64,000 bases of DNA from a virus (lineage: Duplodnaviria > Heunggongvirae > Uroviricota > Caudoviricetes): the IMG/VR virus record IMGVR_UViG_3300039452_000031, one strand, 5' to 3'. This document shows positions 8,126 through 59,696 of this stretch, piece after piece. The position numbers were made by a program, and so were the translations under genes. Positions within the stretch are counted from its first letter, which is position 1. Every line of letters begins with the position of its first letter. Under the pieces are notes generated by a model. That model was not told where the DNA came from and did no database searches. It saw only the letters and a list, made by a program, of their open reading frames with translations.

Positions 8126-8608
8126 ATGGAAATTCAAGCACGACAACGGCTTCTGGCCATGTCGATATCCAAGGCCGTCGCAGAGGATCGTGTTGTGTCC
8201 TATACAACTCCCTTGGTGGAGCACATCGTTAAAGTCTTGGCCGTTGATTCGCCTTCACGTGAGCACTGGATTGAAGAGATTCAGAACTTTCTGAAGAAGA
8301 TTTTCAGCGCCGCATCAAATGTGAAGACCAAATCCGGGCTGCTGTCCGACAAATTCCTGATCGAACATTGGGAATCAATCGCAGAGCTGGTAGCCCAAGA
8401 CTGCGAAAGCGAGTTAAATCTGGCTTCGCTTCAACGAGGCTACGGCGTTGGCCTTCTTAGCATTCCCTCAAACCTGGAATCGAGGCTAAAGGCCTTGACC
8501 TCAACTTTCTACGAGCTGGTTGTTCAGGTCCATCAACGTAAGACGACTGATCGTCAAGCAGCACGCGACTTTTCCAAAATCTTGTTCGATAGTCTAGGAG
8601 ATGAATAA
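8126..8608 (+). CDS. hypothetical protein
   Basis: 160-aa ORF with RBS AGGAG. Confidence 0.45.
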   Translation: MEIQARQRLLAMSISKAVAEDRVVSYTTPLVEHIVKVLAVDSPSREHWIEEIQNFLKKIFSAASNVKTKSGLLSDKFLIEHWESIAELVAQDCESELNLASLQRGYGVGLLSIPSNLESRLKALTSTFYELVVQVHQRKTTDRQAARDFSKILFDSLGDE

Positions 8609-27526: not shown

Positions 27527-28087
27527 ATGGCCAAGCCTTTCTACTCCTCTACTCATCAATTTCGTTTCGAGATGTCCTTGACCCAGACACGCTACTGCGT
27601 GGACGCCGTGATCCAATACGTGTTGGAAACCCATGCTGATCGGGAAAAGGTAGAACCTTTTGTGCGTGCATTGTCGAATGCACCCTACACTTCGATAGCT
27701 AAACTACTGTTACCAGATGAACTTAAGACTATCGTGGCCTTGACGACCCCTAGCAAGGTCATGACCCTAAACGAGGTTAACTCGTTTCTGAAAACTCAAA
27801 TGGATTATGAGTTCTATGGGGCGTCAAAGATGTCTGTGGCCAAAATTCTGGCCATGTTGAAAGCCAATCCGAAGATCAGTGCCTACGTAGCCAAGCAGTC
27901 TGAGCTTCAAAAGGCGGCTGCGCAAAAGAAGGCCGAAGAACGGGAGCACCATAAGGCCAAGAACGAGGCTGCTGAGGCAAATCGTGCTGTGGCCTATCTT
28001 CGTGGGTTGGGTCTTGAGATCGAAGCCGAAGCCTTCAAGGCTCTGGTGGCCAAGAAGGCTAAGGTGACAAAGAAGAGTCGGAAATAA
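27527..28087 (+). CDS. hypothetical protein with Lys-rich coiled-coil C-terminus
   Basis: ATG 3 nt after the upstream stop. Confidence 0.5.
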   Translation: MAKPFYSSTHQFRFEMSLTQTRYCVDAVIQYVLETHADREKVEPFVRALSNAPYTSIAKLLLPDELKTIVALTTPSKVMTLNEVNSFLKTQMDYEFYGASKMSVAKILAMLKANPKISAYVAKQSELQKAAAQKKAEEREHHKAKNEAAEANRAVAYLRGLGLEIEAEAFKALVAKKAKVTKKSRK

Positions 28088-28284
28088 TGTACACGCTCAT
28101 TCTGTCAATAGTCGCCTACCCAGGCTACCATGTCTATCACGTTCCGGGCTTCGATAGTCATGAAGCGGCTAAGCAAGCAGGAGACCTTTGGGTCCAGTCC
28201 ACTGGATTGATTAGTTCCTCAGCCAAGTTCGTTGTCGTTCCCATGTCTCTGACTGCATATGGGAGCACCGATGCTAAAGCTTGA
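28087..28284 (+). CDS. hypothetical small protein
   Basis: 65-aa ORF with ATAATG stop-start overlap. Confidence 0.35.
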   Translation: MYTLILSIVAYPGYHVYHVPGFDSHEAAKQAGDLWVQSTGLISSSAKFVVVPMSLTAYGSTDAKA

Positions 28285-28489
28285 AGACTGGGATTGGTTT
28301 CGAGACGAGAGTGGGGAACTGATTCAAAATCCAGACCTTCTCCATCCGGAGATCAAAATTCCTGAGGTGGTGAATACCGTTCAGGTTGCCTACGACGGCG
28401 GACGCATATACATCAAGGTCAACGATCAGATCCTGTACGAGAACCTTGACGCAGGCCGTGACTTCACGATCACCATAGATAAGGAGTAA
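28259..28489 (+). CDS. hypothetical small protein
   Basis: 76-aa ORF; the start is ambiguous (ATG 28259 or 28271). Confidence 0.35.
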   Translation: MGAPMLKLEDWDWFRDESGELIQNPDLLHPEIKIPEVVNTVQVAYDGGRIYIKVNDQILYENLDAGRDFTITIDKE

Positions 28490-28608
28490 GTATGCCCAAG
28501 GCTTTTGCCTCATCTCTATTCACGAAGTCCCTATTCGGTCTTTAAGTTCCCTAACCCGATCGTCGCCGTATTAAGGACGGTCGTTTTCAACCTCCATAGG
28601 AGATTCAA

Positions 28609-29337
28609 ATGTCCAAGCCTTCCCCTAAGCAACTCACCCTTCACATCCTCTCCCAATCGTTTCAAGCCGGCAATCGTATGCTGGCTACCCGAGCCAGTCG
28701 TCTTGAGGAATCCGAGAAGGGTTCATGGCCGTATGCCTTCCAAAGCGTCATGTTGGCTCAGCAAATTCGCATCGAGACCCTGGAACGCATCGTTGATGCT
28801 CTGCTCACGCACGCGAACCTCCCCGTGGACACCAACCACCAGCTGCCTATCTTTGGCGAGGAGGAAATTGATGTCGGCGAAGAGGACGTAGACGAAATGT
28901 TCGCCGACATGGATGGTGACGACATCAAGAGCCTGGCCTTGTCGGCCGACAGCCCTTACATGGAGACTCGTCGTCCGCTGGATGGTCAGAAGGTGACGGT
29001 AAGGTTGCAAGTCACCGACGTGTTTGCCTTTCATACGGCTCTATTCAACCACAAGGTATGCGCTCGAACTATGGACCGCGCAGCCTTCAACATCGGCACC
29101 ACTAAGGTGTTGGTCCTGGAATTTCTCAATCTTCTGACTAAGACCAACGTTGGGGTTTTCGATAAAGGTGTGGCGCTGTCCATGAATCTTGATGGCCGTC
29201 TTTCTGACGAGGACATCGATAAGCTGATGGACATCTTTCACGGAAAAATCTGGTGTTCGGATGAGCACTCCAAGCAGCAGGTGATGTCGGCCATCATGAA
29301 TATTCTTTTGGCCTTCACCGAACTGGTCGTCGTCTAA
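28609..29337 (+). CDS. hypothetical protein
   Basis: 242-aa ORF with RBS GGAGATTCAA. Confidence 0.5.
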   Translation: MSKPSPKQLTLHILSQSFQAGNRMLATRASRLEESEKGSWPYAFQSVMLAQQIRIETLERIVDALLTHANLPVDTNHQLPIFGEEEIDVGEEDVDEMFADMDGDDIKSLALSADSPYMETRRPLDGQKVTVRLQVTDVFAFHTALFNHKVCARTMDRAAFNIGTTKVLVLEFLNLLTKTNVGVFDKGVALSMNLDGRLSDEDIDKLMDIFHGKIWCSDEHSKQQVMSAIMNILLAFTELVVV

Positions 29338-29353
29338 TCCAAGGGAGCAGAAC

Positions 29354-29755
29354 ATGAATATCGAATACGTAGGCCGAGGTACGGTTTTCCTCATCGGCAA
29401 TCAGGACCACAATCTGTGGGCCTACTTTGTCGAAGGTGAGGACATTACTGTCACCGAACGCTTCACCAAAGCCTCGTTCTTTCCTTCCCTGAAGGAAGCT
29501 CGTGCCGCCCTTAACTATTGCCAAGAAAGTATTGAACGCCAAGACTTTCCACGTGGCGCGACTGGAACCAAGCTGTTCAACTTCTGGCAGGAGGCCAAGG
29601 TCTGGGTCGTGCCTTTCAAGATTCGTGACGTGGTGAACAAGGCTAAGATCACAAGGGCACCTCGAACGACTCGCAAGCCTGCGGCAAAGACCTCAGCGCG
29701 ACGCCCTGCAACTAAGGCAGCTCGTGTTCGTGAAGCGCGAGCATCTAAGACTTAA
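29354..29755 (+). CDS. hypothetical protein with basic C-tail
   Basis: RBS AAGGGAGCAGAAC. Confidence 0.5.
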   Translation: MNIEYVGRGTVFLIGNQDHNLWAYFVEGEDITVTERFTKASFFPSLKEARAALNYCQESIERQDFPRGATGTKLFNFWQEAKVWVVPFKIRDVVNKAKITRAPRTTRKPAAKTSARRPATKAARVREARASKT

Positions 29756-29767
29756 AGGCGGTAGAAA

Positions 29768-30406
29768 ATGCTCAACTCGCAAGTTATTCGTGGTCGCCAA
29801 GTTCCGTTCCCTGCCTTTGCGGCTGAACGTGTCTACATGAAGCCCTTCTTCCAAGCCCAAGGCTTAGGTAAGGAGCTTGCACACTGGCAGCCCACCGTGG
29901 ACGCAATGTTGACCAACATCAAGACCGACAAACCGATCTATTTGATGATCGACCAGCGGGAAGTTTCCCGAGGCGAAATTCATCGTCGTCCTGGGGCCCA
30001 CACTGACGGCAACTGGATTGCGAATATCAGTACCCATGGAAGTCCGGGCCACAGTCAGGGTGGTGGCGGTCGACATGGAGGAGGCAGACATGGAGGAGGC
30101 AGACATATCAATGCCTCGGGCTATCACGATGGTCACAGCATTCGACGTGATGAAGGTTTCCGTGCCAAAGGTGATCTGCTTCTGTTGGCCTCCGACGTTA
30201 TGGGCTGCGAAGCCCTTGTCGGTAAGATCAATGGCTATCCTGACGAGCAGGGATCAGTAGATCATCTGGACCTCTCAGGTCTTCGTGCCGTTCCGATGAC
30301 CCAGGGCTACGTCTGGTACGGTGACGCCTTGCAGTTGGTGCATCGCTCCCTTCCACAGCGCTTCAGCGGTCCTCGCACCGTCGTCCGTCTCAACGTTACC
30401 CAATAA
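29768..30406 (+). CDS. hypothetical protein with (G)GGRH x3 repeat
   Basis: GGGGRHGGGRHGGGRH, encoded by a 15-nt DNA tandem repeat at about 30058-30105. Confidence 0.5.
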   Translation: MLNSQVIRGRQVPFPAFAAERVYMKPFFQAQGLGKELAHWQPTVDAMLTNIKTDKPIYLMIDQREVSRGEIHRRPGAHTDGNWIANISTHGSPGHSQGGGGRHGGGRHGGGRHINASGYHDGHSIRRDEGFRAKGDLLLLASDVMGCEALVGKINGYPDEQGSVDHLDLSGLRAVPMTQGYVWYGDALQLVHRSLPQRFSGPRTVVRLNVTQ

Positions 30407-30417
30407 ATAGGAACAGT

Positions 30418-30939
30418 ATGTCATTCGATCTCGATACCTTCTTGGCAAAGCTAGTGGCCTACAATTCAGATCGCGTCCGCGATTCCTTCATTGAGGACAC
30501 GATCAAGGAACTGGAGGCCTCCATTGGCGATGACGAAGAGGAGGCCGTGACTGATTTGGAGGTGGTCAATAAGTTCTATAATCTGGGACTCGACGAGGTC
30601 CAGATCATGGCCTACACGGCTATCGCGCATCGAGCCTTTCAGCGTGCGGTCAACATCGTTGATTCCCTTCAGCGGAAAGCCAGACCTCTCTCCAAAATCG
30701 CTGACGAATTCGTCTACACCGAGCAACTTCGGGCCCGAAACGAAATTAACAAGATTGCGGTCTTCGTGGCCGACGGTGCGTCGTCACTCGACAAGGTTTC
30801 CATCGAGGCCAAGGAGATGATTCGGCAGGGCACCCCTCGCTTTGAGGTCGTGAAGTTCCTTCGAGACCGTCTGGCTCTCTCCCTAAGAGAGTCACTGGAT
30901 CTTCAAGAGCGTCTGGTTCTTGAGGTTCGCCTACCGTGA
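30418..30939 (+). CDS. hypothetical protein
   Basis: 173-aa ORF. Confidence 0.5.
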   Translation: MSFDLDTFLAKLVAYNSDRVRDSFIEDTIKELEASIGDDEEEAVTDLEVVNKFYNLGLDEVQIMAYTAIAHRAFQRAVNIVDSLQRKARPLSKIADEFVYTEQLRARNEINKIAVFVADGASSLDKVSIEAKEMIRQGTPRFEVVKFLRDRLALSLRESLDLQERLVLEVRLP

Positions 30940-31247
30940 AGTCCAAGCGACAGAAGCAACTGGAAGCCCAGTACCGTCTGCTGACTTCCTCCATGCGGCT
31001 TCTCCAGACCCAACTCGAACAGGCAGGAAGAAGCGAGTTCGACAACTATAAATCCTTCAAAGAGGCCCGCAATAGCCTGCAGGTCGATTTGGCGGAGAAG
31101 AGGGCCTTACGCGATAGGATTGACTTCATTCTCCGAGCCGAGGGCTTCTGGTACACTGAAGGACGCATCCGAACCTTCCTTTTCAACAAGGACGAGCACG
31201 AACACCTAATGGTGGAACAATCCGCTCCACATAACAAACTTCCTTAG
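30936..31247 (+). CDS. hypothetical coiled-coil protein
   Basis: GTGA overlap with the upstream gene. Confidence 0.45.
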   Translation: MKSKRQKQLEAQYRLLTSSMRLLQTQLEQAGRSEFDNYKSFKEARNSLQVDLAEKRALRDRIDFILRAEGFWYTEGRIRTFLFNKDEHEHLMVEQSAPHNKLP

Positions 31248-31280
31248 GACTTCTGGTCCTCATAACTCTGAAAGGCAATC

Positions 31281-31547
31281 ATGAAGATTAAGACCCGAAT
31301 CCTCATCTCCCTGGCCGTAACCATTGTGTTGGTCCTCATTCATCGTCTACTTGCGCCTGCTACACAACTGGCAGGTGAGCAGGTGACAGTGAACCAGATG
31401 AACAATACCGACTCACCGGCCATCACGGCCATGGCGGTCGGTAACGGCGTGGGCATCCTAGACTGGCTTCTACTCCTAGTCTGGGTCATCGGCATGCTCT
31501 TCATCTGGAAGTCGATTCGTAACCAAAAGCAAGACAAGAAAGACTGA
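31281..31547 (+). CDS. small membrane protein (two predicted TM helices)
   Basis: ILISLAVTIVLVLI... and WLLLLVWVIGMLFIW. Confidence 0.5.
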   Translation: MKIKTRILISLAVTIVLVLIHRLLAPATQLAGEQVTVNQMNNTDSPAITAMAVGNGVGILDWLLLLVWVIGMLFIWKSIRNQKQDKKD

Positions 31548-31549
31548 AC

Positions 31550-32482
31550 ATGAAACTCACCGCACTTTTTCTGGCCTCCATTCTGACTCTCCTCACCGGC
31601 TGCTCCCCCAGGGCGCCCAAGAACGAATACGCGGAAGTGGCTCCCAACGAGACTGCCTTCCTTATCGCTCTAGATGGCAACACGAAGGATAAGCAACAGA
31701 AGCTGGATTCTGTAGCCTATTTGGAGAGCAACAAGGTGCAGGCCAAGCGGGTTATGATTACCCACATCAACATCAACAAGTGTCCGGACGCCATGCTTGG
31801 TTGCTGGGATGACGTGCCAAGCGTCAAGCTGCTGAAGATTTCCCGGACCCCGGTCTCCAGGGAATGGACATCGAGCACTACAACCGGCACTTCTGCCGCT
31901 GACGAGTCGTTCCATGTGGGCTCGCTGGATTCCATCGCCTTCTCTTACGGGGCAACGATCACTGCACATATCGACGAGGCCAACACGGCGCAGTTCCTGT
32001 ACTCGTTTGCCGGTACGCAGCTGTCGGCCATCATGGACTCCACGATTCGCTCCTACATCGGCAGTGCTTTGTCTCACGAGTTCGCAGACTTGACGGTTGC
32101 CCAAGGCGCAGCTCAGAAGGTGAAAATCTTCTCCAAAGTCTTTGCGGACGCCAAGCAACACTTTGCAGCCCAAGGCATCACAATCGACAACTTTGGATTC
32201 CTGGACGTCATGCACTATGACGATGAGGCCATTCAGCAGGCAATCAACAAGAAGTTCGAAGCCGACATGCAGATCCAGATCGCTGATGCCCAAGTGATGG
32301 CGGCCCAAAAGTTTGCGGCCGCCAAGGACTCAATCATGCAGATGCAGGCCGTGGAGAATGCCAAGAAGTTGACTGATGCCCAGGCTCACATGATGCTTTC
32401 CTGGGATGGTCACTCTATGCCTCAGTACCTGAACGGCAGCGACTCCATGTTCTCGCCTATGTTCTACGCACCGAAGAAGTAA
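31550..32482 (+). CDS. lipoprotein (lipobox LLTGC)
   Basis: N-terminus MKLTALFLASILTLLTGCSP has signal peptide plus lipobox. ATG 3 nt after the upstream stop. Confidence 0.55.
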   Translation: MKLTALFLASILTLLTGCSPRAPKNEYAEVAPNETAFLIALDGNTKDKQQKLDSVAYLESNKVQAKRVMITHININKCPDAMLGCWDDVPSVKLLKISRTPVSREWTSSTTTGTSAADESFHVGSLDSIAFSYGATITAHIDEANTAQFLYSFAGTQLSAIMDSTIRSYIGSALSHEFADLTVAQGAAQKVKIFSKVFADAKQHFAAQGITIDNFGFLDVMHYDDEAIQQAINKKFEADMQIQIADAQVMAAQKFAAAKDSIMQMQAVENAKKLTDAQAHMMLSWDGHSMPQYLNGSDSMFSPMFYAPKK

Positions 32483-32794
32483 GGCCTGATAGGGGAGTCC
32501 AAGCGGCTCCTCTTTCCACATCCAACCTAGGGAGACGACAATGACTACCGGATTTCGTTGGGGCCCTGACCATGGCGTCTGATGCGCCTAGGCGTTGTGG
32601 GCGACCGAGACAAATCGGCTTCAAGCATGTTATAGATGCTATAGAAGCCAAGCCTCCTGGCCCAGCACGCAATGTCCACATCATCAGTACCCTAGGTCGG
32701 CTCAACCGTCACCTAACGCAAGCCCAGCTGGTCAAGTGGCCTAGGCTGGAAGCCTCGTTCGAGGCCGACATCAAACGTCTTGAAAGCCTACTTC

Positions 32795-33352
32795 ATGGAC
32801 CTCTTAAGAGAACAAGACATTCAGATTCCGAATCTTGAGGAAGTGATTCGTTTCACGGCCTCAGCCCATGCAGGTCAGGTACGCAAGTACACAGGCGAGG
32901 CCTACATTGTGCATCCGGCTGAAGTTGCAGGTTGGACAGCGTCGGCCTTCGTCAACGACCCGCTCCCTCAGGTTCCTGCTGCCTTGGCTATCGCTGTCGC
33001 ATGGGGTCACGACCTCATTGAGGACACGATGAAGCACCTGACGGTTAAGCAGCGTGAGGCTCTCCTGACAGCCAAGTTTGGTCCTCACTTTGCCTACGGC
33101 GTGATGAGCCTATCCGACCTTGAGGAAGGTAACCGTGCTGCACGCAAAGCTGCAGGCGTGGGGCGGCTGGCCTCCTTGCCCGGTTGGCTTCAGACCATCA
33201 AGTGTGCGGATTCGATCTCCAACACGCGAAGCATTCGTCACCATGACCCCAAGTTCTGGCCTACTTATAGGGACGAGAAGCTGGCACTCATTCCCAGGCT
33301 TACGAAGGCCGATCCCTTTCTCCACGCACTGGCACTCTCACTTCTGGAGTAA
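32795..33352 (+). CDS. HD-domain (p)ppGpp hydrolase, SpoT/Rel/Mesh1 hydrolase-domain-like
   Basis: FTASAHAGQVRKYTGEAYIVHPAEVA ... AVAWGHDLIEDT ... IKCADSISNTRSI matches the Rel/SpoT HD signature (H...HD...ED...D). The ORF track gives a TTG at 32780; ATG 32795 is preferred. Confidence 0.6.
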   Translation: MDLLREQDIQIPNLEEVIRFTASAHAGQVRKYTGEAYIVHPAEVAGWTASAFVNDPLPQVPAALAIAVAWGHDLIEDTMKHLTVKQREALLTAKFGPHFAYGVMSLSDLEEGNRAARKAAGVGRLASLPGWLQTIKCADSISNTRSIRHHDPKFWPTYRDEKLALIPRLTKADPFLHALALSLLE

Positions 33353-33355
33353 GGT

Positions 33356-33766
33356 ATGGAATGCAATCTGACCCAAGAACGAATTCGGAGCGTCTTTCTC
33401 GCTCACGGCTTCACGATCAAAGAAGGCCATGCCGATCTGAAGCCTTACGTGTATGAGGCAGCCAAGGCCTTGATCGAGGCCTCACTAGCGGACTATGTGT
33501 TGACCAAGAAACCTGAGGTCACGGCCTTGATGCAGATGGCCCGAGCCATGCGCCTTGCCACGCCTGACTTCTACGATACGGCCTACAAGACATTGCAGAC
33601 CGCCCTCTACGGTTTCCTGACCCAGATTCCCAAAGAGGAGGACCTTCGTCAGGTCGGAATCTTGCACGTTGACGATCAAGTTGGCAGACAAGTTAGGTGG
33701 CTGATTCACGATATGCCTGATGACTCTCCGCTGTTTGCCCACAAGATTCACAAGGTTCACAAATGA
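33356..33766 (+). CDS. hypothetical protein
   Basis: 136-aa ORF. Confidence 0.45.
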   Translation: MECNLTQERIRSVFLAHGFTIKEGHADLKPYVYEAAKALIEASLADYVLTKKPEVTALMQMARAMRLATPDFYDTAYKTLQTALYGFLTQIPKEEDLRQVGILHVDDQVGRQVRWLIHDMPDDSPLFAHKIHKVHK

Positions 33767-35052
33767 CGGCCGACACCAACACTGCCTTAAGGCGGGCTCC
33801 CCACAAGAGCCATTGGATGCTCTACCAGACCTACGGCTCGCATCTCTACGGCATGCAATCGGCCGCCAGCGACTGGGATCGCAAGATCATCTACGTCCCG
33901 CAGGAGAGGGACGTGCTGCTTGGTCATCGCCTCTTGACCATCAGGCATCGTTACGATGCAGAAGGCAACCGCATTCACGATCAGGATCCCGTTCCGCCCG
34001 GAGGAGAGGAGCTGGAGTTCATCCCAGTCCAGAAGTTCGTCTTCGACTTTCTGGAAGGCTCCACATACGCCGTGGAGATGGTGCAAGCCTTCAAGGCCTC
34101 TGAGGCCAAGGTCTCTGGCGACCCGCATCTCATTTATCAGACCTTGGCCCTTATGTCAGCGCTGACGGGTATGCGTCACCAGCACGTCAAGAGCATGGTT
34201 GAGTTTGCATCCAAGCAGGTCTACGACTATGTGCATCGTGGTCAGCGCATGGCCTTGGCTGAGAAGGTGCTGTGGGCTGTAAACACAATCGATGCCCTGC
34301 ACGCACAGACTGACTCTGACGTTCGACCCGTGCGCTTGAAGTCTGCCTGGGAGGAAACAACCGTTCTCGATTTTCTGGCCGAGAAGTACGGATTGAAGAT
34401 CGGCCAGACGGAGAACAACGGGCAGCCGTTTCGAACCCTAGTCGTCAACGATAGGGATTATGTGGAAACTGTACCGCTCTACGACCTCGTCGACTCCCTG
34501 ACTAGGATGATCAAGTCCTACGGCAAGCGCTCGTCGGAGGCAGCCAAGGAAGAAGTGGACTGGAAGTCTTTGGCTCACGCTGTTCGGGTCTATGAGCAGG
34601 TCGAGCAGTATCTGTGCCAAGGCCAGATCACCTTTCCGAGGCCTAACGCCGAATGGCTTAGGGACATCAAGTTGGGTCTTATCCCCGTAGAAGAGGTGAA
34701 GGCCCACCTAGTGAACATGGAGAATCGGGTCAAGGCCTTGATAGAGTCCCCGAAGTACCAGTTCTTCGATACCCGTAGTCGAGCTGATCTTCAGCTATGG
34801 GGCGAGCGCATTCTTTTCCTCTTCCTGAAGAGTTTCTACTTCGGTAAGCCGTCTGAGTCTAAGTCGAATGTCTTTGGTGCATTTCGAATTCCGGAGACGA
34901 GCTATAAGACAGTTCAGGTTGTGGAACGCGCGATCTACGTCTGTCCAGACAGGGACATCGAGTGTGGCCCATATGCAGCGAACTGGTGTACTGGCTGCCC
35001 TCATTGGCTTCGAACCTTGCCAGAGGATGACGGATCATCTGCTCTAGACTAG
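33763..35052 (+). CDS. predicted nucleotidyltransferase (RNA-repair-pathway Pol-beta superfamily-like)
   Basis: N-terminus MLYQTYGSHLYGMQSAASDWDRKIIYV fits the GSxxYG...SDxD signature. C-terminal Cys cluster CGPYAANWCTGCPHW. Confidence 0.45.
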   Translation: MTADTNTALRRAPHKSHWMLYQTYGSHLYGMQSAASDWDRKIIYVPQERDVLLGHRLLTIRHRYDAEGNRIHDQDPVPPGGEELEFIPVQKFVFDFLEGSTYAVEMVQAFKASEAKVSGDPHLIYQTLALMSALTGMRHQHVKSMVEFASKQVYDYVHRGQRMALAEKVLWAVNTIDALHAQTDSDVRPVRLKSAWEETTVLDFLAEKYGLKIGQTENNGQPFRTLVVNDRDYVETVPLYDLVDSLTRMIKSYGKRSSEAAKEEVDWKSLAHAVRVYEQVEQYLCQGQITFPRPNAEWLRDIKLGLIPVEEVKAHLVNMENRVKALIESPKYQFFDTRSRADLQLWGERILFLFLKSFYFGKPSESKSNVFGAFRIPETSYKTVQVVERAIYVCPDRDIECGPYAANWCTGCPHWLRTLPEDDGSSALD

Positions 35053-35061
35053 GAGGTTTAG

Positions 35062-36474
35062 ATGCCTAATATCAATGTGACAAAGGTGAAGACTGACTTT
35101 GGTTTTGACCCCAACGGGCCTGACGTTCAGGTCATTGGAGGTAAGACCTACAAACGAGTTCAGGCCGAAGATCAGGTGAACCTTAAGGGCGGTGAGAAGT
35201 TTCTGGTAGTCGAACCTGAAACAACCGACAAGCCACTTGGTGAGGCCGAGCTTGTGGAAATCATGAAAGAGCGTGGGGGCCCAGAGAAGAAGTACGACCC
35301 TCTAGCAGCCTCGATCATGCACGGAGAAATGGCAATCGATATGCCTGAGGGGCATGTCTTTGGCTCCCCTAGGAAGGTCGCTTCACCTTTGTTTGAAGCT
35401 GCAAAGACTGCGGTTCTGGACGCCGCCAAATCCCCTACGCCAAATTTTCGTGAGGAAGAGCCATACAAGAAAAGCAAGGACAACGACATTCATGTTCGGG
35501 TGGTAACCCACAGCAAGGACGCGTTGGCCAAGAAGGGGCTCCATAAGGCTTTCGACCTCATCTCGGATTCTGTTCGTCAGCAGATGGTTCGGTTGAAGGC
35601 TGCAATAGAACTCGGCATTGACGTGGACCTTAACAAAAAGACTCTGCAAGGTCTTTTGAAGGAAGTTCACCCTGATGCGGACGACATTGAATTTGGCACA
35701 GACTTGATCGGTAACGACCTTGCTGAACTTCTGAAGGTAGGTCTTGAAGACCAATCTAACTCATCGATAGTGGTCGAGAAGCTGGTTGAGGTTGAAGCCG
35801 CACCTCTCCTGCAGAGCCTAAAGTTGCAGCGCAACGACTGCAGCCGTCTCCACAAGCTTTTGGAGGCAATGAGTGAGAAGGCGCTTCAGGCCTCACTACT
35901 GGAATTGCTGAAGATGGCTACACCAGTGGTAGTCCAACATGACTGGCTCTCGGTCATGAGTCCCATGCTTGTCGACTCCTCGGAGGTCTTGCTGCCTGCC
36001 GATCTATGCGTGTTCGAGTTCAAAATCAACGGCCACCTCCTGTTCATGCTCTTGAGTCAAGACAATCTTGATACCCGCCCTATTCTGGTCGAGGCTGGGG
36101 ACAACTGGGTGACTGTACCTCTGAACGAAAAGTTCCAGCACCTACACGACTTCTGCTGGGCACAGGTGCACGCAATCTGTGCCATGCTGTCGGCCAAGGT
36201 CGCGGAGACCACGACGGTAGTCGCACCCAAGAAGTTGAACGACAAGCGGGTCAAGCTGGGCAAGGTTCCACTGTTTGACTACCATATCGTGGACCTCAGC
36301 CGCCGTCACAAGACCAGGCGTTCAGAGGGGGCCAAGGAGTACCAAGGGGTCGTGAAGTTACACCTACGTCGTCCCCATCTTCGACACTACGAGAACGGTG
36401 TGGTCAAGAAGATTGACTGGATGCTGGTTGGCAATCCTGATCTGGGCTTCGTGGACAAGCACTACCGTCTGTAG
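35062..36474 (+). CDS. hypothetical protein
   Basis: 470-aa ORF with RBS AGGAGG. Confidence 0.5.
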   Translation: MPNINVTKVKTDFGFDPNGPDVQVIGGKTYKRVQAEDQVNLKGGEKFLVVEPETTDKPLGEAELVEIMKERGGPEKKYDPLAASIMHGEMAIDMPEGHVFGSPRKVASPLFEAAKTAVLDAAKSPTPNFREEEPYKKSKDNDIHVRVVTHSKDALAKKGLHKAFDLISDSVRQQMVRLKAAIELGIDVDLNKKTLQGLLKEVHPDADDIEFGTDLIGNDLAELLKVGLEDQSNSSIVVEKLVEVEAAPLLQSLKLQRNDCSRLHKLLEAMSEKALQASLLELLKMATPVVVQHDWLSVMSPMLVDSSEVLLPADLCVFEFKINGHLLFMLLSQDNLDTRPILVEAGDNWVTVPLNEKFQHLHDFCWAQVHAICAMLSAKVAETTTVVAPKKLNDKRVKLGKVPLFDYHIVDLSRRHKTRRSEGAKEYQGVVKLHLRRPHLRHYENGVVKKIDWMLVGNPDLGFVDKHYRL

Positions 36475-36518
36475 ACCCCATGCTCATGCGCTTCCCAGCG
36501 CGTTGTTTTTCTACTACA

Positions 36519-36553
36519 CAGGGCGGGGGCCGCAGTCCGCCCTGTGCTATAAT
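36519..36553 (+). promoter_or_regulatory. extended -10 promoter TGcTATAAT abutted by inverted repeat CAGGGCGG(N10)CCGCCCTG
   Basis: -10 at 36548-53. The palindrome CGGGAA-TG-TTCCCG lies at 36561-74, around the expected transcription start. Confidence 0.45.
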
Positions 36554-36594
36554 CAATCTGCGGGAATGTTCCCGATCAACGAAAGGAAGAGAAA

Positions 36595-36885
36595 ATGTCT
36601 AAGGCAAAGATGGCATCGAAGTCTGCAACGGCCGCAGTCGTGGAAGTCACGCAGGAAGCAGCGACCCAGATCACGCATCAGAATCAAGAGTCCTTGACCT
36701 CCATGCTCAAGTCCCATTCCAAGATCAGCGTTGAGCTGGCGCTGGCGAAGAAGCAGGCCAAGGTCAAGAAGAGCAAGAAGACGGCTGGCATTGTTCAGTC
36801 GCTCAAGATCGAGCGCACTGAAATGCGTACCCGAATCGCAGCCCTGCTGTTGCCGACGACGGTGATCGCCCAGCCGCAAGCCTGA
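36595..36885 (+). CDS. hypothetical small basic protein
   Basis: RBS AAAGGAAGAGAAA. Confidence 0.45.
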   Translation: MSKAKMASKSATAAVVEVTQEAATQITHQNQESLTSMLKSHSKISVELALAKKQAKVKKSKKTAGIVQSLKIERTEMRTRIAALLLPTTVIAQPQA

Positions 36886-36900
36886 TCACCGCCACTAAGA

Positions 36901-36930
36901 AAAGGGAGCTTCGGCTCCCTTTCGTCGTTT
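36901..36930 (+). terminator. rho-independent terminator
   Basis: AAAGGGAGC(TTCG)GCTCCCTTT followed by CGTCGTTT. Confidence 0.8.
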
Positions 36931-36939
36931 GAGGTTCAT

Positions 36940-37125
36940 ATGTTCAATCTCTTCGTTCTCTTCGTTCTCGCCTTCTTCTTCATCGGTTTCGTGATCGAGA
37001 CCTTAAGGTCTAAGAGGGAGTCACGTCTCTACGGCTTTTATTGGGTACAGCTGGTATTCCCAGTAGCTTACGGGCTGGCAGCCTTAGGTATGGTCTTGCT
37101 TATCCTCTTTGGACCTCGCGTATGA
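36940..37125 (+). CDS. small membrane protein
   Basis: Two hydrophobic helices. Confidence 0.4.
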   Translation: MFNLFVLFVLAFFFIGFVIETLRSKRESRLYGFYWVQLVFPVAYGLAALGMVLLILFGPRV

Positions 37126-37583
37126 CTCCGTTGATGAGCACTCGGTACGTCACTGTTGAGCCAAGCACACTGACGCCCGTAGATACATTTGGTCTCCCCA
37201 TCGCCCACCCTCTTCGGGTTGCTGCCAATGTCCAAACCTATGAGCGCCGTCGCGCAGAAGCTATGGGCTTTGAGTTCAGCCCTGTTGACGTGCTTTGGGT
37301 GGGCAATGGTTATCAGGTGAGTGGGTCCTTCATTTGCATTTGCGGTCGTCAGGAGTGCTACACCTTCCGCGTCTCTGAGATAGAAGTCACGTTAGCACTC
37401 GCCGATCCTGTAGAGGTCATCAATCCCGCTCGACGCCTTGCTGAGGGAGGATCCTTTTCCCGTGAGCATCTGCTTGCCGACGGCTACGACGAAGAAACGG
37501 TGGACTACATTTTGGCCAAGGGCGAGGAGTTCGATGCCGAAAACCCGAAGGCATATTCGTACACCCAACCTACTAGCTGGTGA
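37122..37583 (+). CDS. hypothetical protein
   Basis: ATGA overlap with the upstream gene. The ORF-track start 37041 lies inside that gene. Confidence 0.45.
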   Translation: MTPLMSTRYVTVEPSTLTPVDTFGLPIAHPLRVAANVQTYERRRAEAMGFEFSPVDVLWVGNGYQVSGSFICICGRQECYTFRVSEIEVTLALADPVEVINPARRLAEGGSFSREHLLADGYDEETVDYILAKGEEFDAENPKAYSYTQPTSW

Positions 37584-37864
37584 TGAAAACCCTACGAATT
37601 GTGGCCGCAGCCAACAGGTGGCCTGATGGTGTTATTGTGGTTGGTGTTCGGCATGCTGACCGTATCATGGCCTCTGTTGCCAGAATTGCTCCACATCGAA
37701 GCCTGCACCACACCGAAGAGGGCTTTGTGGACTCGCGTGGTGATTTCCATAGCCGGGAAGCCGCATGGGTGATTGCCTACGCCGCGAATCAGATCCTTCA
37801 CCGCTTGCCAGCCGATACCAAAACGGACGGCACTCATGTCCTTTGGTCCGAAAATCTGTATTGA
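37580..37864 (+). CDS. hypothetical protein
   Basis: GTGATGA coupling. Confidence 0.4.
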   Translation: MMKTLRIVAAANRWPDGVIVVGVRHADRIMASVARIAPHRSLHHTEEGFVDSRGDFHSREAAWVIAYAANQILHRLPADTKTDGTHVLWSENLY

Positions 37865-37932
37865 TATCCTCCTCTTAATTTCATCCAATACTAAGAAAGT
37901 TTTCGGCCCCGTCTAAGTCATAGGAGGACACA

Positions 37933-39573
37933 GTGACTGGCGCAGCACCAAGTTACATTGATTACCTAACGGACCTGATTTGCAGGGTCTCGAACGACCA
38001 TCACATAACATTTCTCTCTGAATCCGGCACTCGCTGGATTGATAACGAGCAATTGCTCTGCTTTGTGGAATATCTGCACGAGGCGGATCGGCAACAGTAC
38101 CTGCATGCGGTTGCCAACCTTGATGGTCACGCCTTCTCCCGCATCAACGCCCGTCTGAAGACCAAGGGCGGTAGCTATGTGTGGATGGAATTCACTTTGA
38201 TTGCCATGTCGGCGGGCAATCAGATCGCCATCTGTGGTCGAGACATCTCCCACTGGAAGACGATTGAAGCCCGCCTTGAGCAGGCTGCCATGTACGACCC
38301 CCTGACTGGTCTCGGCAACCGTTCCCTTCTGGCGAAGGCCATTGATGACTACATCGCGGTCGCTAAACACAACACTTCTGGCTTTGCCCTCTTAGTATTG
38401 GACCTCGACGGCTTCAAGAAGGTCAATGACTCCCTAGGCCATCTGGCGGGGGACGAGATTCTGGTCGAAGCTTCCCGTCGTCTGAAGGGGGTTCTACGCG
38501 AGCAGGATTTAGCAATCCGCATGGGTGGCGATGAGTTCGTCATCATCCTTCCTGGGGCGCGAACCCCGGCTGCCGTCGAAACGGTCTGCATCAAAATCTT
38601 GCGAGCCATTGAGAAGCCGTTCCTCACCGACTCTGGAAACCTGGTTCATCTTTCGACCTCCATCGGTACATCGTTCTACCCTACTCATGCCCATGAGCTT
38701 CAGTCTCTTCTGCAATGCGCAGACTCTGCCATGTATGCGGCAAAGAAGCAGGGAAAGAATTGCTCCAAGGTCTACGATCCCTCTTCTGAGGGTCGTCACA
38801 ACATTGTGACCATGGAGAGTGCAATGTATGCTGGCATCCAGCAAGGCGAATTCTACTTGGAGTTCCAACCCCTGTTCGATCCTTCCGGGGACCGAATGCT
38901 AGGGGCCGAGACCTTGATGCGCTGGCGTTCGGAAACCTTCGGCTCTGTGTCACCAGCGACCTTCATTCAAGTGGCCGAGACCTCTGGGCTTATTGAATAC
39001 CTAGGTGACTGGTGCCTGCGGGCCTCCTGTCACTTCTTGAAGCGCATCAACCTACAGAACCCGGAGTTCAAAATCTCGGTCAACGTATCGTCCCGGCAGT
39101 TCCAGATGCCGTCCTTCAGGTCTTCACTTCAGCGGGCGGTTGCTGAGATTGAGATCAATCCTCATAACCTCATCTTGGAGATCACTGAGAACTCGCTTAT
39201 GAAGGACACGATGGAGGTCATCAACACTCTGGACGAGATTGACGCCCTTGGCGTGTGCGTGGTCCTCGATGACTTTGGCACCGGCTACTCTTCGTTGGCA
39301 TACCTGAGTCGTTTCCGTCTCAAGGCCCTAAAGGTCGACAAGTCTTTCGTGGACAAGATTGGGGTCTCCAAGTCGGATGAAACGATTTGCAGCGCCATCA
39401 TTTCCCTGGCGCATGCTCTAGGTATGTATTGTGTGGCCGAAGGCGTGGAGACCAAGGAGCAGCTGGACTTCGTGGCCTCCTTGGGTTGCAACATGATTCA
39501 AGGCTACTTGTTCGGGAAGCCGTTGGCAGCTAACGCGCTACTCGATCTAATCTTCCAGAAGGCTGTGGCATGA
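37933..39573 (+). CDS. PAS-GGDEF-EAL protein (putative diguanylate cyclase / c-di-GMP phosphodiesterase)
   Basis: AGGAGG RBS 5 nt before GTG. GGDEF domain: LVLDLDGFKKVNDSLGHLAGDEIL ... RMGGDEFVII. EAL domain: ETLMRW, NVS, EITEN, DDFGTGYSS, KVDKSF, AEGVE, QGY. PAS-like N-terminus. Confidence 0.8.
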   Translation: MTGAAPSYIDYLTDLICRVSNDHHITFLSESGTRWIDNEQLLCFVEYLHEADRQQYLHAVANLDGHAFSRINARLKTKGGSYVWMEFTLIAMSAGNQIAICGRDISHWKTIEARLEQAAMYDPLTGLGNRSLLAKAIDDYIAVAKHNTSGFALLVLDLDGFKKVNDSLGHLAGDEILVEASRRLKGVLREQDLAIRMGGDEFVIILPGARTPAAVETVCIKILRAIEKPFLTDSGNLVHLSTSIGTSFYPTHAHELQSLLQCADSAMYAAKKQGKNCSKVYDPSSEGRHNIVTMESAMYAGIQQGEFYLEFQPLFDPSGDRMLGAETLMRWRSETFGSVSPATFIQVAETSGLIEYLGDWCLRASCHFLKRINLQNPEFKISVNVSSRQFQMPSFRSSLQRAVAEIEINPHNLILEITENSLMKDTMEVINTLDEIDALGVCVVLDDFGTGYSSLAYLSRFRLKALKVDKSFVDKIGVSKSDETICSAIISLAHALGMYCVAEGVETKEQLDFVASLGCNMIQGYLFGKPLAANALLDLIFQKAVA

Positions 39574-40928
39574 ACCCGATTTCAAAAGACATCTTGGAAA
39601 AGATGAAGGGGCGTACGGACTTCCCGTCCCTTGCGTCCACAATCTCCCTGCTGCTGGACGAGCTTCGGAAGGTGAACTCTAGCACCTCATCTGCGGAACT
39701 GAATCGCTTGATCTCCACAGACCCTGCGTTGACAAAGAAGGTGCTTCGTCTTTGCAACTCGCCCATGTACGCACAATTCGGTGGGCAGGTGGCTAGCGTT
39801 GAGGAGGCAGTGCGCATTCTAGGCACGCAAGCCATCAACTACTTGGCTCTCAACGTATCGGTTTTGAACTCCTTCACGGACGATAAAGAAGCTGAGGATT
39901 CGAACGCCAAGCTCTCGCTCTCCATTATGGCCGCCAATATGGCGCACGACATTGATGTCGGTGACGATCCTCCGAGCATCAGACCCCTGAACGTCACGAT
40001 TGCCAACTTCGCTCGCCTCTCTGTGGCTTTCTTTCTGCCTGAGCGTTGGGCTAAGGTAGAGGAGGAGATGGCCAAAGGGCAAGATCAAGACCTTGCCTGT
40101 CTTGGGGTGCTTGGCTGCCCGTTGGGTGACGTAGCTAGGGACATTCTCTCCTCATGGCGGTTTCCGGAGTCCCTTATCTCTGTCGCCACCGGGGAAGATC
40201 AACGACCTTACGTGGACTTCTTCAACGCCGCCTCTGAGGAACTAACTCAGGAGGTCCCGAACATGGAGGCTCTGATCGATCGGTTCCCGGCCTTGGTAAC
40301 GCCTACCATTCGGCGTCAGGTGCTGGACTCCTTGGCCGTGGAACAGCAAAAGTTCATGGGTGAGGACACGTTGAGGGCCATCTTTGATAACCGTCGAAAG
40401 AAGTTCAGCGTCGCCTCTGCGTTGGAAGGCATCGACGGCTCTAGGGAAAGCCTGGCCACTTCTCTGCCAAAGCTCATGAAGTGCCTCTTGACTTTTGGAC
40501 CAGATCGGGTAGTTGTGGCCTCCCGAAACATCCTTGGGCCTGATAAGTTCCGCATCCTGTACTTTTACGATAAAGACTCGGGCATGGAGTCCGTTCTTCC
40601 AGAGGACCGTCGCGGCTTCCTCTTGGAGGAGGTGCCCATGATCTCCATCTGCCTGGCCAAGCAAATGGACGTCAACGTGCGAGACGTTCAGGCTCTCAAG
40701 GCGGGATCGAATGTGGCATCCGCACGTCTGGATCTATTTCCGTCTTACATGCGCAGTCTGTGCCTCCTTCCACTGGAGTTCCCGAACCGCTCGCAGAGTG
40801 TTGTCTACTTGGCCTGGAGGGGGCCCAATGCTTTGGACACCAAGGCAATGAATGAGATCCTGAACTTTAAGGCCGCGGTCATCAACGCCGTGTCCTCTTA
40901 CGAGGGCCCTGTGCTAGCCGACGCTTAA
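39570..40928 (+). CDS. HDOD-domain protein (putative c-di-GMP/signal-transduction accessory)
   Basis: KVLRLCNSPMYAQFGGQVASVEEAVRILGTQAI matches the HDOD core pattern. ATGA overlap with the GGDEF-EAL gene. Confidence 0.55.
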   Translation: MNPISKDILEKMKGRTDFPSLASTISLLLDELRKVNSSTSSAELNRLISTDPALTKKVLRLCNSPMYAQFGGQVASVEEAVRILGTQAINYLALNVSVLNSFTDDKEAEDSNAKLSLSIMAANMAHDIDVGDDPPSIRPLNVTIANFARLSVAFFLPERWAKVEEEMAKGQDQDLACLGVLGCPLGDVARDILSSWRFPESLISVATGEDQRPYVDFFNAASEELTQEVPNMEALIDRFPALVTPTIRRQVLDSLAVEQQKFMGEDTLRAIFDNRRKKFSVASALEGIDGSRESLATSLPKLMKCLLTFGPDRVVVASRNILGPDKFRILYFYDKDSGMESVLPEDRRGFLLEEVPMISICLAKQMDVNVRDVQALKAGSNVASARLDLFPSYMRSLCLLPLEFPNRSQSVVYLAWRGPNALDTKAMNEILNFKAAVINAVSSYEGPVLADA

Positions 40929-42141: not shown

Positions 42142-42711
42142 ATGAAGATCCAAGCTAAAATGCGATTGACCGACTCCTTAGTGCTGGGTGCCCACCGCAC
42201 TATCGAGCAAGCTATTCTGGTACCTGAGGTTGCCAAGGCGGTCAAGGACTTTGTCAAGTCATATGGGAAGTCGTTGCTCCTCATAGGTGGCATTGCGGTC
42301 TCTTACTACACCAGACCAAGGGCTACCACTGACGCAGATTTTCTGTTCTCGTCGTCAGAAGCGGCTCCAGATCGAGTTGAAGGCTTCAAGCGAATTCGTG
42401 CTCATGCCTTTCTTCACCTTGAAACGCATGTTGAACTGGAAATCCTAGACCCTGACTTCTTGGGCATAAGTGAAACCTTATACGCTCAGGTGGAGACCTC
42501 GGCTGTACGAGTAGCTGAGCACTTATCGTTGCCGTCCATCGCTGGGCTTATAGCTCTAAAGACTTGTCGATTGAGTTTTCAAGACAAGGCGGATATCGAC
42601 AACCTGCTTAGGGTTCTTGAACAGCGCGGCAAGGAGTTCTCTATACCCGAATGGGACGTACCGCATGAAAAGGTAGAGGCATTCAATGCCTTTTTGAAAG
42701 AACGATGCTAG
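42142..42711 (+). CDS. nucleotidyltransferase-fold protein (AbiEii/minimal NTase-like motif)
   Basis: LLLIGGIAVSYYTRPRATTDADFLF fits the GG...(R)xT/S-DxD NTase signature. Confidence 0.4.
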   Translation: MKIQAKMRLTDSLVLGAHRTIEQAILVPEVAKAVKDFVKSYGKSLLLIGGIAVSYYTRPRATTDADFLFSSSEAAPDRVEGFKRIRAHAFLHLETHVELEILDPDFLGISETLYAQVETSAVRVAEHLSLPSIAGLIALKTCRLSFQDKADIDNLLRVLEQRGKEFSIPEWDVPHEKVEAFNAFLKERC

Positions 42712-42971
42712 GAGACTTGATGAACAATATGGAGCGTAGGGTGTTATATGTTGTGGCCAACACCATTGGTAGGGACCTCAAGGAGATGAATTTGGACATG
42801 ACCTTGGAGGAGTTGGAAATCGACTCCCTAGACAACGCGGAGATCATGCTCGAACTGGAAGAGGAATTCGAAATTCAGATTCCAGACAATGTGTGGCGCC
42901 CGCCTCCGCAGACCATCAACGCATATGTCAATAGGGTTGAGGCCTATCTATCGACTTTCAAGTCTGACTAA
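42705..42971 (+). CDS. acyl carrier protein-like
   Basis: LEELEIDSLDNAEIMLELEEEFEIQIPD has a DSL phosphopantetheine-attachment-type motif in ACP helix-II context. 88 aa. Confidence 0.55.
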   Translation: MLGDLMNNMERRVLYVVANTIGRDLKEMNLDMTLEELEIDSLDNAEIMLELEEEFEIQIPDNVWRPPPQTINAYVNRVEAYLSTFKSD

Positions 42972-47699: not shown

Positions 47700-47929
47700 A
47701 GTCCATACTGGGGACCTATACTCCTAACCAAACACGCGGCGAGTGTGAAGTAGAGTCCACACGCAGTTGCGACCCGGGGCGACCAGCGGTGCTGGAAGGC
47801 AATCAATGAGGTCCTGAACGGCAGGGCAACCCAACAGCGCAAGATCGTATCGATAAGTCGTTTTACGAAAGCCTGATTCAAGACCTCACCATTTGTAGTC
47901 CGTGAGATACACAGAATAAAGCATGTGAG

Positions 47930-48008
47930 TGGTCGGTGAAAACTAGGACCACGGAAAGCAGACGTTGATGGGTGCAAGACCCGGGTTCGATTCCCGGCAG
48001 CTCCACCA
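47930..48008 (+). ncRNA. ssrA: tmRNA (ssrA), acceptor piece of a circularly permuted two-piece tmRNA; 5' boundary approximate
   Basis: 3' end AAGACCCGGGTTCGATTCCCGGCAGCTCCACCA parallels the E. coli tmRNA 3' end (...GGACGCGGGUUCAACUCCCGCCAGCUCCACCA). T-arm CCGGG-TTCGATT-CCCGG. Acceptor 3' strand CAGCTCC, discriminator A, encoded CCA. Confidence 0.75.
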
Positions 48009-48080
48009 CTAGGTTCTTACAAGGGCCTAGTAGTGCGTTCTGAACATTGCTCGATGAGTTCAGAGTAGGGCCCTAGTGAT

Positions 48081-48300
48081 GGGGCTGAACTGGTTTCGAT
48101 TGCGTTGCTGAGACTGAAGCTACATGCCGAGGTAGTATGGATCCTCGTTAAAAGCCTATGCAACAAAAGTAACTGCAGCCAATGACAGCAGCTTCGATCA
48201 GCGCCTCGCGGCCTGATCGACAAAGCTCTGCCGGGTTCTACCTAGCTTAGGTTAGGTGTGTACGGCGGAGGGCCCGGGCACCTGATAATGACGGTGTCTT
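48081..48300 (+). ncRNA. ssrA: tmRNA (ssrA), coding piece: acceptor 5' strand, PK1 and tag ORF AANDSSFDQRLAA; 3' boundary approximate
   Basis: GGGGCTGAACTGGTTTCGATTGCG parallels GGGGCUGAUUCUGGAUUCGACGGG. It pairs with CAGCTCC, giving a G3:U70 pair. PK1 reads CATGCCGAGG...CCTCGTTAAAAGCC, as in E. coli CAUGCCGAGG...CCUCGUAAAAAGCC. Resume codon GCA at 48175 and TGA at 48214-16. Confidence 0.8.
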
Positions 48301-48512
48301 TGACAGAGCGCAAGCTCAATGAACCCGGGCCACCTTTCTCTTTGCAAGGCGATTGTGAAGCCCATTCCGACCAGATGGCCATCTGGGTAGCTCGATTCTT
48401 GAGTGTCGGTTATACGCCACATTCTCGTCCTGATGTTTTGCTAGGACAGCCACTACCTGTCTTAGGAAAGCATGAGTGGGTTTCACAATCTCTTTATTTC
48501 CTGGAGATGAAC

Positions 48513-59399: not shown

Positions 59400-59696
59400 A
59401 TGAATGCCATTAGGATCGCCTTGGACTACGATGGAACCTACACTGCTGATCCAGACCTGTGGTTGAGCTTCGTGACCAAGGCGATCAATCGAGGTCATGA
59501 GGTTCTGATAGTGACCATGCGTTTTCCAGAAGAGTTGGCTGATATAGATCCCAATCTCTTAGACTTGGGTGTGGAAGTCATTCCAACCTCACGTAAGGCC
59601 AAGCGCCAATTTCTGATCGACAATCGCGGTGGGCTGCAAATGCCTAATATCTGGATCGACGACAATCCACTTTGGATCTATGAGGACGCGCTATGA
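59400..59696 (+). CDS. HAD-superfamily phosphatase-like protein (second, adjacent)
   Basis: Motif I ALDYDGTYT. Thr in LIVTMR. Motif IV WIDDNP. Confidence 0.4.
   Translation: MNAIRIALDYDGTYTADPDLWLSFVTKAINRGHEVLIVTMRFPEELADIDPNLLDLGVEVIPTSRKAKRQFLIDNRGGLQMPNIWIDDNPLWIYEDAL

Follow-up and report, generated by a model that had tools for sequence, protein, structure and literature searches.

A probable PaSpo-like small alarmone hydrolase encoded in the early region of a novel large phage

Results

The window analysed here, a stretch of 64,000 nucleotides from IMG/VR virus record IMGVR_UViG_3300039452_000031, comes from a novel phage of at least 131 kb and corresponds to its early/replication region. 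An open reading frame (ORF) on its plus strand at 32795–33352 probably encodes a stand-alone small alarmone hydrolase (SAH) made of an RSH hydrolase domain, an assignment that draws on the ORF itself, its coding score, PHROG 990, profile searches, an AlphaFold2 model and Foldseek. The ORF runs from an ATG at 32795 to a stop codon at 33350–33352 and specifies 185 residues, with an alternative in-frame TTG start at 32780 that would give 190 residues. It exists as an earlier sequence-only reading had described it, and the metagenome annotation holds an identical call: the same 185-residue gene was called independently by the metagenome gene caller on contig k141_1575514 of ENA ERZ27313792 (131,559 bp), and a second, 9-kb metagenomic contig also carries the identical gene call. 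Codon usage, scored with a model trained on the long ORFs of the window, gave +0.30 for the hydrolase frame and −0.39 and −0.56 for other frames. Most homologues start about 11–13 residues further in (52-member alignment), and the N-terminal 12 or so residues are modelled poorly (AlphaFold2 pLDDT 66), so the precise start codon is uncertain, though this is of no consequence. An 88-residue ORF overlapping the start of the gene (32572–32838) was rejected as non-coding, with a coding score of about 0, no family matches and no call in the metagenome annotation.

Sequence searches placed the protein among the hydrolase domains of the RSH superfamily. As a single sequence it matched PHROG 990, 'metal-dependent phosphohydrolase' (E = 1.5e-25), and the NCBIfam spoT_relA N-terminus (E = 3.4e-6). 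Its PDB matches included 1vj7, the hydrolase domain of RelSeq (E = 4e-4), together with B. subtilis Rel, Lmo0812, T. thermophilus Rel, MESH1 and the P. aeruginosa SAH (PaSAH). A search of 5.8 billion proteins returned 193 relatives, the closest being 50–56% identical; 120 of them were listed (40–56% identity), and Pfam HD_4 (PF13328) is present in nearly all of these. A family profile, built from an alignment of 52 hydrolase homologues (A1), matched 22 PDB chains of RSH hydrolases, most of them at E = 1e-15 to 1e-21, including Lmo0812, Mesh1/MESH1, the Leptospira SAH, the B. subtilis, T. thermophilus and Seq Rel proteins and PaSAH. Aph1 was the weakest RSH match (E = 9e-8), and a lone non-RSH HD chain appeared at E = 1e-4, with no unrelated HD family scoring better. 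This similarity is far beyond chance and identifies the protein, at the level of sequence, as a member of the RSH superfamily hydrolase domain. A single domain spans residues 14–184 or thereabouts; the protein has no synthetase or regulatory domain, in agreement with the earlier description of it as a hydrolase lacking a synthetase.

The family is widespread in phages as a stand-alone gene. Homologues are annotated in 149 deposited phage genomes, mostly phages of Pseudomonas, Erwinia, Rhizobium and Dickeya, and further members occur in prophage and phage contigs and among the BFVD viral structures, giant eukaryotic viruses included. One deposited record deserves separate mention: in Agrobacterium phage OLIVR5 (MT234342.1; locus 3821–4501 of L003), the tblastn match to the hydrolase lies on the plus strand at record positions 90223–90723, and the coding sequence deposited there as '(p)ppGpp synthetase/hydrolase' (gp154c, 90043–90534) is on the opposite strand. 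Because its strand opposes that of the match, gp154c was probably deposited with the wrong strand or boundaries.

All six RSH hydrolase motifs are conserved residue for residue in comparison with RelSeq. The peptides HAGQVRKYTGEAYIVHPAEVA, HDLIEDT and IKCADSISNTR, which the sequence-only reading had taken as the Rel/SpoT/Mesh1 hydrolase signature, are all present, and the signature itself is borne out by catalytic residues that align one-to-one with RelSeq and that are either invariant across the 52 homologues or conserved in at least 90% of them. In a HMMER alignment to 1vj7, R30/K31 of the hydrolase correspond to R44/K45 of RelSeq, Y37 to Y50, H40 to H53, H72-D73 to H77-D78, E76-D77 to E81-D82, D139 to D144 and N143 to N148. 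Eleven positions (H25, Q28, R30, H40, H72, D73, E76, D77, K136, D139 and N143) are identical in 52 of 52 family members, and K31 is conserved in at least 90% of them. On the DNA, the R30-K31 codons lie at 32882–32887 (+), R30 being the counterpart of the base-stacking, phosphate-binding arginine R44 of RelSeq. The codon for H40, equivalent to the RelSeq metal ligand H53 and part of 'YIVHP', is at 32912–32914 (+). The codons for H72-D73-L-I-E76-D77, which hold the HD metal-binding pair and the catalytic ED diad, occupy 33008–33025 (+), and those for K136-C-A-D139-S-I-S-N143, which include the counterparts of the RelSeq metal ligand D144 and of N148, occupy 33200–33223 (+). The predicted active site is intact, and nothing hints at a degenerate enzyme.

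The (p)ppApp-specific hydrolase Aph1 carries a signature of D24, R96, D116, R119, K133 and Y134, and substitution D24R opens it to ppGpp (PMC10083569). We checked this signature in the hydrolase at the D24-equivalent position only, where we found an arginine (R30); the equivalence of Aph1 D24 with RelSeq R44 and hydrolase R30 is presumed rather than aligned. The invariant R30 would make the family resemble promiscuous or guanosine-active enzymes.

Structure prediction gave the same family assignment. The AlphaFold2 model of the hydrolase computed on A1 (pLDDT 94.8, pTM 0.91) has ten helices, and the protein is predicted to adopt the all-alpha SAH fold (nine or more helices) and to superpose on solved SAHs. 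The top 17 Foldseek matches of the model in the PDB were all SAHs (TM 0.70–0.82), with PaSAH (6yvc) the best (TM 0.75–0.82) and human and fly Mesh1, the Leptospira SAH (LlSAH) and C. glutamicum RelH (CgRelH) next. Aph1 was weaker (E = 2.7e-4), and YpgQ, dNTP triphosphohydrolases, DatZ and cyclic-nucleotide phosphodiesterases (PDEs) came in at E > 0.05. On these values, and with one non-RSH HD profile match at 1e-4, we rejected an unrelated HD phosphohydrolase (dGTPase, YpgQ, HD-GYP or PDE). The sequence-only reading had conceded that its hydrolase call would be wrong if the best matches were of dGTPase type and the conserved ED/D residues were misaligned; since RSH hydrolases and SAHs top both the profile and the fold searches, and the ED diad aligns, the call stands.

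A 2020 study described stand-alone SAHs in phages and prophages and tested such enzymes (PMC7229694), and the closest tested relative of the hydrolase is PaSpo of phage SSU5 (SSU5_099, AFL47026.1; 36.5% identity over 159 residues, E = 1e-20; family hidden Markov model (HMM) E = 4.5e-46). Both are stand-alone phage proteins with a single HD domain and have the motifs RKYTGE.YI.HP, HD..EDT, GNR and IK.AD...N in common, but SSU5_099 is 213 residues long, has a longer C-terminal tail and shares only about a third of its residues. Their carriers also differ, SSU5 being a temperate plasmid-like siphophage of Salmonella and the window coming from a novel phage of at least 131 kb. The same HMM scored MESH1 at E = 1.4e-25 and the PVP-SE1 PbcSpo protein at E = 1.8e-14. 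Judged from these similarity scores and from PaSAH as the best structural match, the hydrolase likely belongs to the PaSpo subfamily (Jimmy et al., 2020).

Other relatives lie at greater distance or differ in architecture. PaSAH (6yvc/6z3n) is the best structural match (root-mean-square deviation 2.5–3.2 Å over about 175 columns) and is matched by profile over nearly its full length (E = 5e-18), but it is encoded on a bacterial chromosome, and the structural alignment shows 21% identity. Mesh1/MESH1 (3nqw, 3nr1, 5vxa) agrees with the hydrolase in fold and motifs (profile E = 4e-21 to 1e-19, TM about 0.75), but is eukaryotic, is also an NADPH phosphatase and shares about 22–29% identity with it. 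The long RSHs (RelSeq 1vj7, Rel Tte 6s2t, B. subtilis Rel 6yxa and SpoT) share the hydrolase motifs (profile E = 1e-17 to 1e-19); in them, however, a synthetase and regulatory TGS/ACT domains control the hydrolase, and the window protein has none of these. The PbcSpo SAHs (PVP-SE1 gp220 and C. marina ATfaRel) are SAHs that stand alone, like the hydrolase, or act as antitoxins; these relatives neutralise toxSAS, the alarmone synthetase toxins (PMC7229694). PVP-SE1 gp220, however, aligns at 29.5% identity over 61 residues of the N-terminal half only (family HMM E = 1e-12 to 1e-14), and ATfaRel sits in an operon with its own toxSAS, whereas no synthetase was found in the scanned window ORFs. Jumbo-phage 'HD-alarmone PDEases' were catalogued in 2021 by Iyer et al. 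(PMC7824862). Two of these predicted counter-alarmone enzymes, 201phi2-1 gp325 (37.6% identity, E = 3e-22, HMM E = 3e-46) and phiKZ gp246, resemble the hydrolase, but they are predictions only and come from other phage lineages and neighbourhoods. SAHs are now routinely listed in phage annotation papers (PMC12846349).

The hydrolase gene heads a tight block of four genes on the plus strand, followed by orf136, an RlaP/T4-NrdC.11-type nucleotidyltransferase and orf470 with junctions of 3, −4 and 9 nucleotides; a 312-nucleotide gap lies upstream of the block and a terminator-like site at 36486 downstream. The gene for orf136 (33356–33766, +) starts 3 nucleotides after the hydrolase stop codon and has no Pfam or PHROG family. 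Its relatives match the N-terminal 40 or so residues only (LTQERIRSVFLAHGFTIKEGHADLKPYVYEAAKALIEA), a module that occurs at varied positions in 783 proteins and appears to be an uncharacterised mobile mini-domain. We considered orf136 as a hydrolase-specific partner and rejected it, as what it shares is just this promiscuous module of about 40 residues, found in 783 proteins of varied architecture and length. The Pol-beta nucleotidyltransferase gene (33763–35052, +) has a start that overlaps the orf136 stop by 4 nucleotides; the protein matches phrog_388 (E = 3e-36) and, barely, PF10127 (E = 6e-5; 23.2 bits with a cut-off of 23), and it matched NrdC.11 of T4-like phages by tblastn. The block closes with orf470 (35062–36474, +), 9 nucleotides after the nucleotidyltransferase, the C-terminal half of which falls into a phage family with no assigned function (in homologues, PF26125). 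A sequence scan found a terminator-like stem-loop with a T-run 12 nucleotides after its stop codon (36486–36512, +), which may mark the end of a four-gene unit; such sites are no commoner in the region than in shuffled sequence, so the stem-loop is weak evidence alone.

We then looked for the same arrangement elsewhere. Loci of hydrolase homologues found by tblastn comprised three annotated phages, 19 IMG/VR contigs and one Logan contig, and direct tblastn detected no RlaP homologue in 22 other hydrolase-homologue loci (L001–L022 and L025). PF10127 was likewise absent from the precomputed neighbour Pfam families of five further contigs in T4-like, siphophage-like and Massilia prophage settings, a weaker negative because the same precomputed table lists no family for the nucleotidyltransferase of the window itself. 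Around orf470 homologues on two phage contigs, no HD_4 or RlaP Pfam family was annotated, and a scan of IMG/VR returned no close relatives of the nucleotidyltransferase or of orf470. In all homologue loci viewed, the hydrolase homologues stand alone among small early-type genes. Genus tallies gave 1435 records for the nucleotidyltransferase, mainly in T4-like phages, and 149 for the hydrolase, mainly in other genera, so that phages with the one and phages with the other appear to be largely different sets. The nearest approaches to a shared neighbourhood were a weak homologue of the orf470 C-terminus 3.3 kb from the hydrolase homologue in L025 (tblastn) and an RtcB fragment 5.8 kb upstream of the homologue in L006, the only ligase link among the tblastn loci. 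No other examined locus shows the hydrolase–RlaP four-gene arrangement. With no repeated partnership in the 22 loci, the five further contigs or the two orf470-homologue contigs, we rejected a conserved hydrolase–RlaP or hydrolase–orf470 module; in view of this missing linkage, we take the block to be a set of accessory genes that came to lie together in this lineage and are possibly co-transcribed.

Upstream, the gap at 32483–32794 contains no called gene and no convincing coding signal. Its fold is mildly stable (z = −2.3), and searches of it found no Rfam family and no sigma-70-like promoter. On these grounds we rejected a structured RNA or promoter as detected there, with the z-score at only −2.3; the gap could still hold a phage-specific promoter or leader. 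At its start, a GC-rich hairpin in the minimum-free-energy structure (32491–32513, +) may mark the end of an upstream transcription unit. Directly upstream of the hydrolase lies an SPFH/Band-7 lipoprotein-like gene (31550–32482, +), which the hairpin follows closely. Salmonella phage SSU5 also has an SPFH/Band-7 protein (SSU5_062), at a position that does not adjoin its hydrolase.

The phage setting that the sequence-only reading had proposed is supported by gene content. Genes in the window are dense and nearly all on one strand, and include an NAD-dependent DNA ligase, RtcB, a two-subunit type II topoisomerase, a phage-type sigma factor, a single-stranded DNA-binding protein, a peptidase and a polynucleotide-kinase-type phosphatase. 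Queried at 28000–40000, the window had no megablast match among 50,697 phage records. The RtcB RNA ligase (8608–9879, +; E = 3e-122) lies 24 kb from the hydrolase gene, and the phosphatase is a stand-alone PNKP-type HAD 3'-phosphatase domain at 58945–59397 (+), supported by PF25109 (E = 2e-8) and phrog_415, 'polynucleotide kinase' (E = 1e-23). A small ORF adjoining it (59400–59696, +) shows by eye a HAD-like DxDGT motif at its start, with no supporting family match; no kinase domain was seen with either the phosphatase or this ORF. Six tRNA genes (at 42037, 43024, 50509, 50590, 50682 and 53797) also lie in the window.

We also searched for a cognate toxin and for known defence systems. No RelA_SpoT synthetase family was found in the neighbours of the hydrolase or in the window ORFs scanned with Pfam, a set that is not quite complete, and none occurs among the precomputed neighbour annotations of five homologue contigs. 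Neither the hydrolase nor any of its neighbours matches a PADLOC defence model. We accordingly rejected an ATfaRel-like toxSAS toxin–antitoxin pair or a known defence system, there being no synthetase in the scanned ORFs and no PADLOC match.

Several further features of the window are recorded here as observations in their own right. A permuted tmRNA gene of the two-piece type lies at 47952–48216 (+) (Rfam RF04321, 75.5 bits with a gathering threshold of 47, E = 1e-12); ARAGORN called a tmRNA at 47916–48307 with the predicted tag peptide AANDSSFDQRLAA, and the surroundings are rich in tRNA genes. An acyl-carrier-protein-like small ORF (42705–42971, +; PP-binding, E = 1.5e-6), an unusual phage cargo, sits among tRNA genes. 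At 1.5 kb downstream of the hydrolase block, a PAS-GGDEF-EAL protein (37933–39573, +; EAL E = 2e-68, GGDEF E = 2e-45) is followed by an HDOD-domain protein (39570–40928, +; E = 2e-21) with a start that overlaps its stop. The two look like a phage-borne cyclic di-GMP signalling pair, which together with an alarmone hydrolase suggests a phage that manipulates several host nucleotide second messengers.

Discussion

We have established the homology, intact active site, fold, single-domain architecture and phage setting of the gene at 32795–33352. It probably encodes a PaSpo-like SAH, a divalent-metal 3'-pyrophosphohydrolase acting on hyperphosphorylated nucleotides, with a function in counter-defence and host takeover. 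In such an enzyme, H40, H72, D73 and D139 would bind a divalent metal (Mn2+ in relatives), and the E76-D77 diad would hydrolyse the 3'-pyrophosphate ester. The expected substrates are (p)ppGpp and (p)ppApp, and probably also the 3'-pyrophosphate that toxSAS place on the CCA end of tRNA. Promiscuous cleavage is expected because the base-stacking arginine is kept and because the nearest characterised relatives are promiscuous. PaSAH, MESH1 and ATfaRel each hydrolyse both (p)ppGpp and (p)ppApp (PMC10083569), and the pyrophosphorylated tRNA 3' end is a third plausible SAH substrate (bioRxiv 10.1101/2021.04.30.441581; PMC11559606): MESH1 and ATfaRel restore aminoacylation of pyrophosphorylated tRNA, and PaSpo of SSU5 removes the tRNA modification made by FaRel2 (PMC11559606). 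The SSU5 PaSpo and PVP-SE1 SAHs neutralise CapRel, PhRel, PhRel2, FaRel2 and FaRel, all five toxSAS tested (PMC7229694). In a large lytic-type phage, the hydrolase would prevent or reverse the shut-down of the infected cell by alarmones or toxSAS. Its metal dependence, its substrates, the timing of its expression and its benefit to the phage are what we infer.

Several points weigh against this interpretation. The characterised SAHs reach at most 36% identity to the protein, and at such distances substrate preference is unpredictable according to the authors of a related phage annotation (PMC12846349). The phage SAHs tested so far were assayed by heterologous co-expression, and we found no publication showing a benefit of a phage-encoded SAH during real infection. 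The HD_4 search suggested by the sequence-only reading also gave a divided answer: nearly all homologues carry PF13328 and the family profile reaches RSH enzymes at E = 1e-15 to 1e-21, but the single hydrolase sequence scores 21.8 bits (E = 1.7e-4), which is below the gathering cut-off of 27.2 bits.

The composition of the block raises the alternative that the protein is an RNA end-healing enzyme of a phage tRNA-repair operon, which removes a 3'-phosphate or 3'-pyrophosphate so that the RlaP-type enzyme can extend the 3'-OH, with alarmones not its main substrate. RlaP requires an RNA 3'-OH and adds one or two nucleoside monophosphates to such ends, helping to restore damaged tRNA (PMC12776372); the four genes are tightly packed between the 312-nucleotide gap and the terminator-like site; SAHs can dephosphorylate tRNA 3' ends in a manner 'similar to T4 Pnk'; and the phage devotes much of its coding to RNA repair and translation (RtcB, the PNKP-type phosphatase, six tRNAs and the tmRNA). 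The hydrolase–RlaP adjacency, however, recurs in none of the 22 loci searched by tblastn, and PF10127 is unlisted for neighbours in the five further contigs, which is weaker evidence. Phages bearing the nucleotidyltransferase and phages bearing the hydrolase appear largely distinct, close relatives of the nucleotidyltransferase or orf470 were not found in IMG/VR, and the phage already has a 3'-phosphatase of PNKP type. We consider this alternative unlikely. In its operon form, the hydrolase would be the first gene of a tRNA 3'-end rescue operon, stripping the phosphate or pyrophosphate left by toxSAS or ribotoxins before RlaP rebuilds the missing 3' nucleotides. That proposal is doubtful to the same degree; if true, an RSH hydrolase would here be dedicated to the healing of RNA ends and would be the partner that generates the 3'-OH for RlaP.

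A Mesh1-like metabolic phosphatase, acting on NADPH, pAp/PAPS-like or other 3'-phosphorylated metabolites and reshaping host cofactor or nucleotide pools rather than signalling, seems improbable. Human MESH1, which ranks among the best structural and profile matches, is reported to be an NADPH phosphatase, and the PDB contains its complex with PAPS; metabolic promiscuity has also been described for an orphan bacterial SAH (PMC9765508). By sequence, however, the closest characterised relatives are PaSpo-type SAHs that act on alarmones and pyrophosphorylated tRNA (PMC7229694), the alarmone-binding motif residues are all kept, and the protein has no sequence feature specific to NADPH. A (p)ppApp-specific hydrolase of the Aph1 or SAHMex kind, protecting only against (p)ppApp-making toxins and sparing (p)ppGpp, is very improbable, for although such HD hydrolases exist and Aph1 is detectably related (profile E = 9e-8, Foldseek E = 2.7e-4), Aph1 is the weakest RSH match, an invariant arginine (R30) occupies the presumed position of its D24, where D24R opens Aph1 to ppGpp, and the model has ten helices, like dimeric SAHs, as against the compact eight of tetrameric Aph1.

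As a PaSpo-like SAH, the gene is a divergent member of a known family, since phage SAHs have already been described, tested and catalogued. It extends that family by a divergent member that is assigned with high confidence, comes from a novel large phage and shares at most 56% identity with any homologue from the large-database search and 36% with any tested enzyme. It is one more candidate on which substrate range among (p)ppGpp, (p)ppApp and pyrophosphorylated tRNA could be explored; it opens no new question. The finding is a solid annotation that will not surprise a specialist. Phages are restricted by the stringent response itself, and alarmone synthetase toxins such as CapRel, PhRel and FaRel2 are now known to act in anti-phage defence. 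By removing the products of such toxins, a hydrolase carried by a phage would be a simple and general counter-defence.

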